Below are positions 1-3,000 of a stretch of 13,586 nucleotides of DNA, piece by piece. A program made the position numbers. This stretch comes from a virus (lineage: Duplodnaviria; Heunggongvirae; Uroviricota; Caudoviricetes): the IMG/VR virus record IMGVR_UViG_2897352509_000015; one strand, given 5' to 3'. Each line of letters begins with the position of its first letter. Positions within the stretch are counted from its first letter, which is position 1.

Positions 1-3000
1 ATGTTGAAGATAATACCCGGTGCAATTGGATACTTTAATAAAACACTCAATTCAAATCAATTCGATAATAAAGATGCAAACAAAGATAAATTAAATAATA
101 TATATGGTAAGTCTATTGATTATTCAGCGCTGCGTCATCGGGATATAATTATTGCAAAAATAGATTTGTTTATTCAAAGAATCACTCATAATTTATGGCA
201 TGCACGTAAAAAAAATGTGTTTTTAATTGAGCAAATAACTAATCTCAAAGAGTGGGTTAATAAGTATATTGGAGATTGCACTGATGAGGAATTAAACGAT
301 CGTGAATTTATTGCATCAGTTGTTGATCGGGCTATTTTTCATTTCGCGATTAATAGTATATGTAATACTGAGGGTAATAAAGATGCAACGCCCATAGAAC
401 GATATACTTTTGATGTAGAAACCAAGAATGGCCTTCCCTCCACGGTTCAGTTATTTTATGAAGAATCTAAAGATAATGAACCTTTAGCAAATATACATTT
501 ACAAGCAATAGGTTCTGGTTTTTTAACGTTTGTTAATGCATGTCAGAAATATGATGACAACAGCTTAAAATTATTCGCTTCACTGTTAATTTCACTTTCA
601 TATTCTAGTGCCTACACAGATTTAGCAGGGGAAGTGAAGATTAATGATCATAATGGGAACTATCTGACAGCTCAGTTTGAAGAGTTATCTCAACGTGATA
701 TGAAGAAGTACCTGGGAGAGATGAAGCGTCTGGCAGATGGGGGAGAAATGAGTTTTGATGGCTATCTGGATAAGATGTCACATCTGGTGAATGAAGGAAC
801 GCTCGCCCCTGATATTTTAAGCAAAATGCGAGATGCTGCACCGAAATTAATTGACTTTGCTAAGTCGTTTGACCCAAACTCAAAGGAAAAGATTAAAATA
901 TATACAGGTACTTCTAAATTAATTTATGATTTATTCGGGGTTAAATCGGAGAAATAATATGTGAAGTTCTTCGATGGTATGAAAGGTATTACATAAAAGA
1001 ACCCAATGCTTATTGGGTTCTTTTTTCTCTATCAGTGCTATTAGCAGGGAGAGATATCACCGGAGTTTAATGTGTGATTTTTATTTATCGTCGAATCTGT
1101 ATTGTTTATCATTGCTTTTCACAACGCTAACATCTAATAAGATTAGATCTTCACTTCGTGAGAGCTTCATGCCTTGAGAGGATCTCATTTTTCTTTTGCA
1201 ATGAGACAGGCGCTTCCTGTTGTTATGGTATAGTACCCCGTTATTGAGCCTCCTGAACAGTGATGCTGAATAACATAACTCCATGATATATCGATAAAAT
1301 AATCTCTACATTTGAAAATGCACGGTAATTCTGAAATGCAAAAAATCAACCAAACCAGCGCAATGCCTGAAAAAACTGACGTTCACTGGAGTGGTCGGTT
1401 TAGCGTTGCACCAATGCTCGATAGGATGTACCGTTTTTGAAAAACAAATAGTTATATACTTTGTGGGAGCCTATTGGGAACCCGGCGTTTTCATTTCAAG
1501 GTGTAATCCATACGCGGCTTAAGAATGAGATATAATGCGACTTTTAGTGTTCCGCTTGAGAGGCCATGATGCTTACCCTGGACGAGATAGGTCAATCAGT
1601 ACGTAACAATATCCAGTTGATTATTGATCATGTCGGCTTACCTCTTGCTGTTGGTCCGCTCAGTGATGATGATTACAAGATTCTGTGTGGTGGCTATGGT
1701 GAGCTTGAATGGGACTATGCGTTAAGTACCTATGGCAACTCCAGAGAAAAGTATGAGTTCTGCATAAAACTTGTTCAGCAAGGTCGGGTTCAGGGAATAC
1801 CATCAGGAGCAGCAATTTGTGTTTATGGGGTTGAAGAAAACATCTTTCGTATCCATATGATCGAAAGGTTTTCTAGAGAAGATGAATCTCACCCATTGAA
1901 AGGGCGCATGGTTTTACTCACTCTTATGAGTGCTTTTATATTTTGTAAAGCTGTTGAATGTAAAGTTGTCCACATTGTAGAGCCAGTACCAGAACTGGTG
2001 CAGTATTACGAGTCTTTTGGTTTCCGCATGGAACAGTGCGGTTATGTGATGTCGGCAGTCATTGATGAGCTGCAGGATATCTTTCTTAAATTTGCTCAGT
2101 AGGTATAGACGAGAAGGGTCTACAAATTGTAGGATACCCGTCCAGATTACCTTAAAGGTACATCTATGGCAGTCGTTTTGTGCTTAAACTACTAAGAAAC
2201 GATGTCACCAATCGACATGATCGATTGGCATAAGTTAGCGAAACAAGCTAGCTTTAAAGAAAGGGTTAGAGACGCCTTTACTGTCTCGGGAGTTTTCTAT
2301 GAAAGATCAAAAAGCAACCAAGCCACAGGTTAAGTTCGACACAATGAAAGCATTCGCAGGTATGGGTGCTGCTGTTGAAGTTCTGATGAAGGCTGCTCCT
2401 AATGCGTTCACTCACGCTACTGTCTCTGGTAAAGAGCAGCAGGGTAAGCTTCGTCGTCGCAAAGCAGCATGATCATAGCTGGTGCTTTTTGAAAACCCGC
2501 CTTCAGGCGGGTTTTTTCTTTAGTGATGTTCTTTGTCCTTCTGTTTGACTGTTCTGACCTGTTCCCACTCGATACGTCCTTCTTCTCGCCTTTTGTCTAT
2601 GTATTCCGCAAGATCTTGAATATTGATGCAACGTTTTGCTTTTTGTGATGTGCCGATGCGATATGTTGGAACGGGCAACTTACAAGCGTTTGCTTTTGCT
2701 TCTGCCGTGGCTGGACTCATACCAAAGTACTTTTGGCTAACTGCTGAGAGTTCAATGTTTGGGGTATTGAATTCAGCCATCAGTAAAAACAAGGTGTTCA
2801 TAATTTTCTCCATCAAAACCGGCTGCACCCGGGAAAATCATAATTCTGTGCTGGTGGCAGGAATTAATTTCTGCCAGATAGCGGAAACATATTTTGCCTG
2901 ATGACGGGCATCAGCCAGGGCGTTGTGCCGTTCGCCATCGAAAGGCATGTCCATTTTGGGGTCGAATCCGATGGAACGCCCAAGCGTAACGATCGTGCGT

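Follow-up and report, generated by a model that had tools for sequence, protein, structure and literature searches.

The window analysed here is a stretch of viral DNA of 13,586 nucleotides (nt; IMG/VR record IMGVR_UViG_2897352509_000015), and its left part carries a two-gene cargo cassette of a prophage integrated in dusA. The first gene (1566-2102, + strand) encodes a divergent acetyltransferase of the GNAT fold; after a structured intergenic spacer of 196 nt (2103-2298) comes a gene for a basic protein of 57 amino acids (aa; 2299-2472, + strand). We favour, with a probability of roughly 0.38, the reading that the cassette is a toxin-antitoxin-like or abortive-infection module, in which the acetyltransferase is an effector restrained by a labile small partner. 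This reading is favoured because the dependence of the two genes is one-way, because the small partner is predicted to be disordered and ends like a degron, and because the cassette is swapped with one encoding a Panacea antitoxin. An earlier reading of the same DNA, hereafter the original prediction, had listed an open reading frame (ORF) of 178 aa, the 196-nt spacer with a repeat cluster and an exact 8-5-8 palindrome, and the 57-aa ORF; all were found where it had placed them. The literature, searched by accession, by PHROG identifier and for GNAT systems in prophages and P2 hotspots, gave no description of the pair.

One-way linkage of the two genes

Loci were gathered from GTDB representative genomes, IMG/VR, exact-protein look-ups, and annotated phages and genomes. 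A homologue of the small gene lies 77-248 nt downstream, on the same strand, in 106/106 loci with an acetyltransferase homologue (39-100% identity), and both ORFs are intact in every locus that could be judged. The linked loci belong to Escherichia, Salmonella, Pseudescherichia, Franconibacter, Enterobacter, Photorhabdus, Xenorhabdus, Morganella, Edwardsiella and Shewanella, together with IMG/VR contigs, and adjacency is kept in several bacterial families at enzyme identities of 39-47%. Nine loci carry the small gene without the acetyltransferase. An effector that is unable to exist without its neutraliser would be expected to leave just such an asymmetry. As judged from these comparisons, the two genes appear to form a functional pair, and chance adjacency is effectively excluded.

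Both genes are common in Escherichia coli: among 5,426 complete genomes, including those of O157:H7, O111 and O145 strains, 357 have the acetyltransferase gene and 561 the small gene. For the form of the small protein found in Salmonella, the index of an assembly collection lists 1,389 blocks. In Photorhabdus (loci L032-L034, 2939-4001), a lone homologue of the 57-aa gene lies between a YhfG-Fic toxin-antitoxin pair on its upstream side and a sheath-initiator gene on its downstream side, and it is preceded by about 1 kb of AT-rich DNA in which no ORF is convincing; this locus may be a decayed cassette.

Exchange of the cassette among phages

At least six different prophage slots house the pair. 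In lambdoid prophages that sit in dusA, from E. coli (the window and phage mEp460) and Salmonella, its place is between attL and xis. Phage Eeyore and many prophages carry it between the genes of the Q antiterminator and the holin, and a P2-like prophage of Edwardsiella has it between GpA and the portal gene; the GpA-GpQ region is the principal P2 defence hotspot (PMC13586616). The remaining slots are inside a contractile-tail gene cluster in Photorhabdus, between int and the tail fibre gene in a Morganella dusA phage, and, in a prophage of Shewanella, upstream of leftward-oriented phage genes that include a DNA methylase gene and a PrtN-family gene.

In the dusA slot, the segment at 1483-2285 (+ strand), which comprises the promoter, the acetyltransferase gene and the structured spacer, is replaced in other phages by a Panacea-antitoxin cassette. 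In BLASTN comparisons with these PanA-type loci, the shared backbone stops at 1482 and resumes at 2286 (96-99% identity), and the left flank is 83.5% identical to that of phage Lys8385Vzw (locus L005). The right junction falls just at the ribosome-binding site of the small gene; by these junctions, the structured spacer belongs to the acetyltransferase cassette and not to the small gene. About 200 of the 561 E. coli genomes that bear the small gene have no acetyltransferase at this slot, and every acetyltransferase-less dusA locus examined holds there a PF13274 Panacea antitoxin with a partner of 128/139 aa (2482-3470 in locus L006, 3973-4961 in L004 and L005). Panacea is an antitoxin domain (PMC8832971); the partner, for which Pfam and PADLOC gave nothing, is presumably a PanT toxin yet to be characterised. 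A survey of gene neighbourhoods had been suggested along with the original prediction, and its outcome is this allelic cassette in other dusA phages and the linkage of the pair in all 106 loci.

The comparative evidence firmly indicates that the module sits where phages keep toxin-antitoxin and immunity cargo. The suggestion that the pair could be a toxin-antitoxin or defence module is therefore favoured by its setting, through the P2 hotspot and the exchange with Panacea, and it does not extend to a classical system of a GNAT toxin with a ribbon-helix-helix (RHH) antitoxin.

A second insertion slot is found between the terminator of the small gene and xis. It holds a gene for a CoiA-like nuclease in the enterotoxigenic E. 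coli strain H10407 (locus L008, 3822-4856) and, in one Salmonella strain, a gene for a helix-turn-helix (HTH) protein with two transmembrane segments (locus L122, 3881-4348); both look like accessory or defence candidates.

An autonomous transcription unit

A TATAAT hexamer resembling a −10 box lies at 1531-1536 (+ strand); it has no canonical −35 and was for this reason missed by the consensus promoter scan. Fifteen loci of different contexts keep a TAnAAT-like hexamer 25-35 nt before the start codon, and in several of them a terminator hairpin precedes it. Neither the scan nor inspection by eye found an internal sigma-70 promoter for the small gene in the spacer, and the two genes are therefore assumed to be co-transcribed. 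Downstream of the small gene, a bidirectional intrinsic terminator (2491-2516) with an 11-bp G+C-rich stem (AAAACCCGCCT/AGGCGGGTTTT), flanked by an A-run and a T-run, serves the module as well as the convergent xis-like gene and early-left operon. The 57-aa ORF had been credited with a good ribosome-binding site and its own terminator: the former is borne out, and the latter is present as a shared element. On the basis of the conserved −10 hexamer, the frequent upstream terminator and the terminator at 2491-2516, we take 1483-2516 to be a phage "moron", autonomous and horizontally mobile among temperate phages, having its own promoter and terminator between backbone genes and being replaced among otherwise collinear phages.

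The acetyltransferase

The product of the first gene corresponds to gp23 of phage mEp460 (WP_000956557.1) and has a computed isoelectric point (pI) of 4.8. Whereas the original prediction counted 178 aa, all homologues and PGAP use the second ATG (1569), which lies 5 nt after the sequence GAGAGG (1558-1563). Given these starts and the better Shine-Dalgarno spacing, translation probably begins at 1569 and yields 177 aa, the ORF itself being as first described.

The absence of an obvious family, already remarked upon in the original prediction, was confirmed by profile searches. There was no match at E≤1 in Pfam (Acetyltransf_1/3/7/10 and similar models) and none in NCBIfam, including the NCBI curated resistance-protein models, and PHROGs places the protein in phrog_4350, a family of unknown function. 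A profile search of PDB sequences returned no GNAT at E≤10, and its best match, gp41-5, was judged spurious. The weak GNAT-like pattern reported earlier was a good guess as far as the fold is concerned. The structural model runs β1-α1-α2-β2-4-α3-β5-α4-β6, in the mixed α/β order of GNAT enzymes, and we are confident in predicting a GNAT acetyltransferase fold from it. The structural neighbours include SpeG, AAC(6') and a glycylthricin acetyltransferase, and among the closest folds are the N-terminal and ribosomal-protein acetyltransferases RimI and Naa20/40/50; a search of viral folds in BFVD gave generic viral GNATs only (TM ≤0.63). The residues that are invariant in the family are E100 in β4, H109-P-L111, G113 and M115 in the long β4-α3 loop, and Y148, G152 and F153 in the sequence YYESFGF. 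In the model, they would lie in the expected places, where GNAT enzymes bind coenzyme A and position the catalytic Tyr/Glu.

An exhaustive search of 1.84 billion representative proteins with a hidden Markov model (HMM) retrieved 93 representative clusters at E≤1e-3. Ten weaker HMM hits were tested, and they contained no Pfam GNAT domain and provided no bridge to a characterised subfamily. The family thus appears to be a tiny "dark" GNAT clade confined to prophage cargo, and not a housekeeping family.

The 57-aa protein

The small protein (pI 10.5) corresponds to gp24 of mEp460 (WP_000654815.1), and its gene is preceded at 6 nt by GGGAG (2288-2292). The original prediction called the ORF unannotated; it may be lacking in the gene track supplied at that time, but RefSeq/PGAP annotates it and PHROGs gives it its own family, phrog_2741, of unknown function. 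Both proteins of the pair are otherwise only "hypothetical". The ratio of nonsynonymous to synonymous substitution rates (dN/dS) ranges from 0.11 to 0.36 in nine informative comparisons with the window (loci L011-L020), two near-identical loci having too few changes to inform. Differences at the three codon positions number 772/721/1331, the third being nearly double each of the first two, and a GGAG or GAGG ribosome-binding site precedes the start codon in almost all lineages. By these measures, the ORF behaves as a real translated gene under purifying selection, and the concern that it might be neither conserved nor translated can be set aside.

The small protein has homologues in Escherichia, Salmonella, Enterobacter, Atlantibacter, Franconibacter, Cronobacter, Hafnia, Serratia, Edwardsiella, Photorhabdus, Xenorhabdus, Morganella, Plesiomonas and Shewanella. 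With the exception of two 30-aa fragments, nearly all of these are free-standing and measure 47-89 aa. Across 33 sequences the invariant positions are G23, A25, L29, P34, E46 and G49; there is no invariant lysine, and the N-terminus is variable. The AlphaFold2 (AF2) model shows a single helix (residues 15-32) with disordered basic tails (pLDDT 66). Searches of Pfam, NCBIfam and PADLOC gave no match (E≤1 for Pfam and PADLOC), and no HTH was recognised, either as a Pfam match or in the single-helix model. Profile and structure searches, which had been proposed for both proteins, thus led to no housekeeping family, to a GNAT fold for the larger protein and to a single helix for the smaller. A membrane peptide was also considered and rejected, since the mean Kyte-Doolittle hydropathy of the helix is 0.86 and Lys and Glu are among its residues. 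The Ribo-seq data of O157:H7 Sakai (PMC5597208) are uninformative on this ORF, as the peptide is absent from the supplements and the dusA site of Sakai is empty.

The C-terminus of the small protein is nearly always ...(K/R/V/I/E)AA, and ...RRRKAA in the window. It resembles, by analogy, known ClpX degrons such as RRKKAI of MuA, ...GVAA of an RseA fragment and ...ALAA of the ssrA tag (PMC8138137), which suggests that the protein may be unstable.

The structured spacer

The original prediction described the spacer as structured, and this is well supported: it folds better than 200/200 dinucleotide shuffles (z = −3.6), and two of its hairpins show compensatory changes. In an alignment of 29 distinct related enterobacterial spacers, pairing reaches 90.9%, against 24-42% with slid partners, and the covariation score is 0.219, against at most 0.07.

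The two covarying hairpins are in the middle of the spacer. Hairpin C (2208-2228) is the 8-5-8 palindrome, with exact arms at 2208-2215 and 2221-2228; it is paired in 97.4% of alignment cells, with double compensatory changes in two pairs and many G.U pairs. Hairpin D (2232-2254), consisting of AAGTTAGC, a 7-nt loop and GCTAGCTT, is paired in 93.1% of cells, and 4/7 pairs show double compensatory changes. The compensatory changes and the many G.U pairs suggest that hairpins C and D act as RNA stems rather than as a DNA operator. Further downstream, hairpin E (GAGAC...GTCTC, 2269-2287) abuts the Shine-Dalgarno sequence of the small gene; its GTCTC arm is invariant and its 5' arm is GAGAC or GAGGC, the latter forming a G.U pair. 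Closer to the acetyltransferase gene, hairpin B (2148-2160) has TACC and GGTA arms that are invariant or U.G in the 29 spacers, around a variable 5-nt loop. The inverted-repeat cluster that follows the stop codon (2106-2138, within about 2102-2139), part of which is seen in the predicted fold, combines TAGAC 2106-2110/GTCTA 2118-2122, CTACA 2120-2124/TGTAG 2128-2132 and GGTAT 2102-2106/ATACC 2134-2138. Its CTACA/TGTAG helix is paired in 80% of cells with no covariation, and TAGACG (2106-2111) is invariant in the 29 spacers.

RNAalifold pairs the invariant AGAC within 2106-2111 with the invariant GTCT within 2283-2287, which closes the spacer into a multi-helix junction. This long-range pairing competes with the local GAGAC/GTCTC hairpin, and covariation cannot decide between the two because both segments are invariant; a structural switch is possible according to the model.

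In distant lineages, most spacers keep, by eye, a hairpin 1-3 nt before the ribosome-binding site, and most are more structured than their shuffles (z −0.2 to −5.4). A covariance model of hairpins C, D and E matched only the window and mEp460 among 28 sources, with nothing in distant lineages or PanA-type loci; for this reason, the spacer RNA is not a universal third component. Rfam gave no hit within 2103-2298 at E≤1, the only hits in the window lying over the terminator and far below gathering scores. A 193-nt small RNA of an mEp460-like prophage in E. coli K1, sRNA-17 (PMC7719688), was considered as a counterpart of the spacer and rejected, its sequence not being in the window. We read the spacer, from these comparisons, as a lineage-specific element within a two-gene mRNA that may tune the ratio of the products.

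The prophage in dusA

The original prediction spoke generically of a dusA island. The window is a full-length match (98.7% identity) to the dusA locus of E. coli O157:H7 strains of the EC4115/TW14359 type, and the same one-piece arrangement occurs in 202 complete E. coli genomes. Sequence comparison identifies the element as a 10.8-kb degraded lambdoid prophage remnant, essentially the two ends of an mEp460-like phage. In intact mEp460, both proteins are 100% identical to those of the window, and gp23 and gp24 are placed between int/attP and the excisionase gene gp25. On the circular phage map the module is thus directly beside attP and int. Accordingly, the location distal to the integrase, where accessory cargo of dusA elements had been said to reside, is an artefact of prophage orientation, although the module is accessory cargo indeed. 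The dusA site is empty in O157:H7 Sakai, and strain PV15-279 has there, instead of the 10.8-kb remnant, a much larger prophage with an IS66 insertion.

At attL lies a 5' fragment of the host dusA gene (1319-1423, + strand, within an ORF at 1312-1440), which PGAP annotates as a partial tRNA-dihydrouridine synthase. It has the same orientation as the module, and the terminator scan found no terminator-like site between it and 1566; given the shared orientation, transcription from the host dusA promoter would be expected to enter the cassette. The phage supplies a replacement 5' end of dusA (35 codons; 12173-12280 in the window and 5753-5857 in locus L002), which is 77-94% identical to the host fragment, so that the original promoter would now face the acetyltransferase cassette. 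The restored dusA gene is annotated at 12173-13210.

The phage backbone is marked by a PrtN-family excisionase-like gene (2520-2828, − strand; PF11112, E 4e-23; phrog_1300, excisionase), convergent to the module and annotated as the excisionase gp25 in mEp460. Behind it are remnants of the early-left operon: a 3'-5' exonuclease gene with a truncated N-terminus (2838-3176), a pseudogene of a methyltransferase dependent on S-adenosylmethionine (3491-3964, with an internal stop according to the PGAP annotation of the EC4115 equivalent), yfdR and a truncated DUF2303 gene. At 4893-5440 this last gene (− strand) abuts a truncated tail-tip J gene (+ strand), and the deletion at this junction has removed the immunity, replication and lysis genes and most structural genes. 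The order that follows is Lom, a tail fibre with collagen-like repeats, three NleG effectors, DinI and the integrase (10987-12084, − strand). The tail-fibre gene (6817-8136) reaches a G+C content of 0.66 and an AT skew of +0.49 around 7200-8000. The three tandem NleG-family type III effector genes (8513-10516; 192, 209 and 213 aa), located between the tail fibre gene and DinI/int, are the recognised virulence cargo of the element, and their position is proximal to the integrase.

Possible function of the cassette

We propose the following scenario. The module would be expressed from the prophage, and the acidic acetyltransferase would be a toxic effector that acetylates some essential component of the cell or of a phage, probably a basic one. 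The small protein would bind and restrain the enzyme, in line with the contrast in charge between the two proteins (pI 10.5 and 4.8), and the proportion in which the two are made from their shared mRNA would be governed by the intergenic hairpins. If the ...RRRKAA end does act as a ClpX degron, the small protein would be short-lived; any disturbance of gene expression, for example by a superinfecting phage, would then lead to decay of the partner and free the enzyme, with an anti-phage effect. tRNA-acetylating toxins use basic surfaces, and we consider a basic protein or a cationic molecule a more likely target than tRNA.

Several observations weigh against this scenario. Neither protein matches the Pfam models of GNAT enzymes or antitoxins, and the acetyltransferase belongs to no defence family of PADLOC-DB 2.0 at E≤1. 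The canonical pyrophosphate-binding loop of GNAT motif A is Q/R-x-x-G-x-G/A, and the corresponding loop here (H109-P-L-K-G113-R-M115), although invariant, is non-canonical, so that activity is not assured. By analogy with known toxins, a pI of 4.8 would fit a tRNA substrate poorly. The enzyme-first gene order and the long spacer of 77-248 nt differ from those of characterised GNAT/RHH systems, as does a partner that, in its model, does not look like a DNA-binding protein. Finally, the small gene persists intact beside the PanA-type cassette and alone in Photorhabdus, so that its role may be an independent one and not that of a dedicated antitoxin.

The pair may even represent a new class of prophage-borne immunity or toxin-antitoxin module, made of a dark GNAT acting on a protein target rather than on tRNA, a degron-tagged partner with a single helix and a ratio-setting RNA. 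The small protein may then be a reusable partner that also serves Panacea-type cassettes. We put this forward tentatively and regard it as possible but rather doubtful. Should the module indeed be of the toxin-antitoxin or defence kind, it would add to phage immunity an acetyltransferase-based mechanism with an unconventional small partner, and it would account for intact genes in a dead 10.8-kb prophage stump. With the 57-aa gene as a simple marker, swappable cargo slots could also be located in temperate phages, both those that integrate in dusA and others. Important pathogens commonly carry the cassette, and its identical copy in the intact, cultivable phage mEp460 makes the idea directly testable.

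Other functions can be imagined for the cassette. The enzyme might serve counter-defence or host takeover by acetylating a host immune protein or another host factor, as AcrVA5 does with Cas12a, with the small protein as a regulator or accessory similar to the anti-CRISPR-associated (Aca) proteins. Phage-borne GNAT enzymes with anti-CRISPR activity do exist, namely AcrVA5 and AcrVA5Bsp (PMC10799925), several of the slots are within lytic operons (Q-holin, tail cluster), and a constant small downstream gene beside a variable upstream gene would suit such an arrangement. However, the small protein has no HTH, its model being a single helix with no Pfam match; the cassette has its own promoter and terminator, in slots of prophage-expressed genes that include the P2 defence hotspot; and its allelic alternative is a toxin-antitoxin cassette and not an anti-defence gene. 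Moreover, the module is intact in the dead remnant of 202 E. coli genomes, which suggests a benefit to the host rather than to the phage infection cycle. We consider counter-defence unlikely.

More improbable in our view is lysogenic conversion by a detoxifying enzyme, whose substrate would be a small cationic compound (for example a polyamine, or an antibiotic of the aminoglycoside-like or peptide-nucleotide kind), with the small protein as accessory or chaperone and the lysogen being protected. The acidic pI would suit cationic substrates, SpeG, AAC(6') and the glycylthricin acetyltransferase are structural neighbours, and the moron layout and its retention in a defective prophage would be understandable. 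Such a role leaves unexplained both the obligatory small partner (106/106 loci) and the exchange with a toxin-antitoxin cassette; in addition, the family is tiny and prophage-confined, and it matches none of the curated resistance-protein models of NCBIfam or any other NCBIfam model.

Alternatively, the two proteins could form an enzyme-substrate or adaptor pair, in which the small protein is the dedicated substrate or, through its basic tails, tethers the enzyme to a nucleic-acid or ribosomal target, the complex being the active species. The complementary charges and the proximity of the fold to RimI and Naa20/40/50 are consistent with this, and a general adaptor might well be found with other cassettes, as the small protein is. 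A substrate role is difficult to reconcile with the lack of an invariant lysine and the variable N-terminus, and a labile inhibitor would explain the degron-like end and the disorder no less well; we hold such a pair to be quite improbable. That the two genes are unrelated hitch-hiking neighbours, and the hairpins ordinary elements that stabilise mRNA or resemble terminators, is barely credible. In dusA phages the small gene does fall on that side of the cassette junction which belongs to the conserved backbone, and the RNA structure is lineage-specific, but adjacency is without exception in 106 loci, down to 39-47% enzyme identity and in six unrelated slots.

Comparison with known systems

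Membership of the classical GNAT/RHH toxin-antitoxin family was rejected on gene order, spacing and antitoxin type. In the type II systems with a DUF1778 antitoxin (TacAT, AtaRT, KacAT and ItaRT), the antitoxin is encoded immediately upstream of the enzyme, whereas the partner in the window is downstream after 196 nt and is predicted to be a 57-aa single helix with no DUF1778/RHH match; the enzyme in turn is acidic and has no Pfam GNAT or PDB sequence match. What the window pair shares with them is the asymmetry of the linkage, the enzyme never being found without its partner (106/106) and the orphan partner being tolerated (nine loci). The housekeeping acetyltransferases RimI and Naa20/40/50 have recognisable Pfam domains, unlike the window family, which is found only as prophage cargo and matches no profile. 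As for the anti-CRISPR (Acr) enzymes of the AcrVA5 type with their Aca proteins, the likeness is at the level of gene layout, a phage GNAT beside a small conserved downstream gene; the small protein of the window is not an HTH regulator, and its slot and allelic partners point to prophage-expressed cargo.

The PanAT cassettes occupy, in sister phages, the same slot between attL(dusA) and the 57-aa gene and, like the window cassette, consist of two genes with their own expression signals. PanA, a 190-aa antitoxin, is encoded first, next to the gene of the 128/139-aa partner, which it overlaps in phages SKA5 and Lys8385Vzw. The two cassettes are unrelated in sequence and in domains, PanAT being an alternative allele that is not in the window. 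Finally, with phage morons and hotspots such as rexAB, bor and lom of lambda, or old/tin and GpA-GpQ of P2, the window cassette shares the autonomous unit of promoter, gene(s) and terminator set between conserved genes. Like them, it is present, absent or swapped among collinear phages, and one homologous pair is located in the P2 GpA-GpQ hotspot itself; its content is new, neither protein belonging to a described defence or exclusion family.

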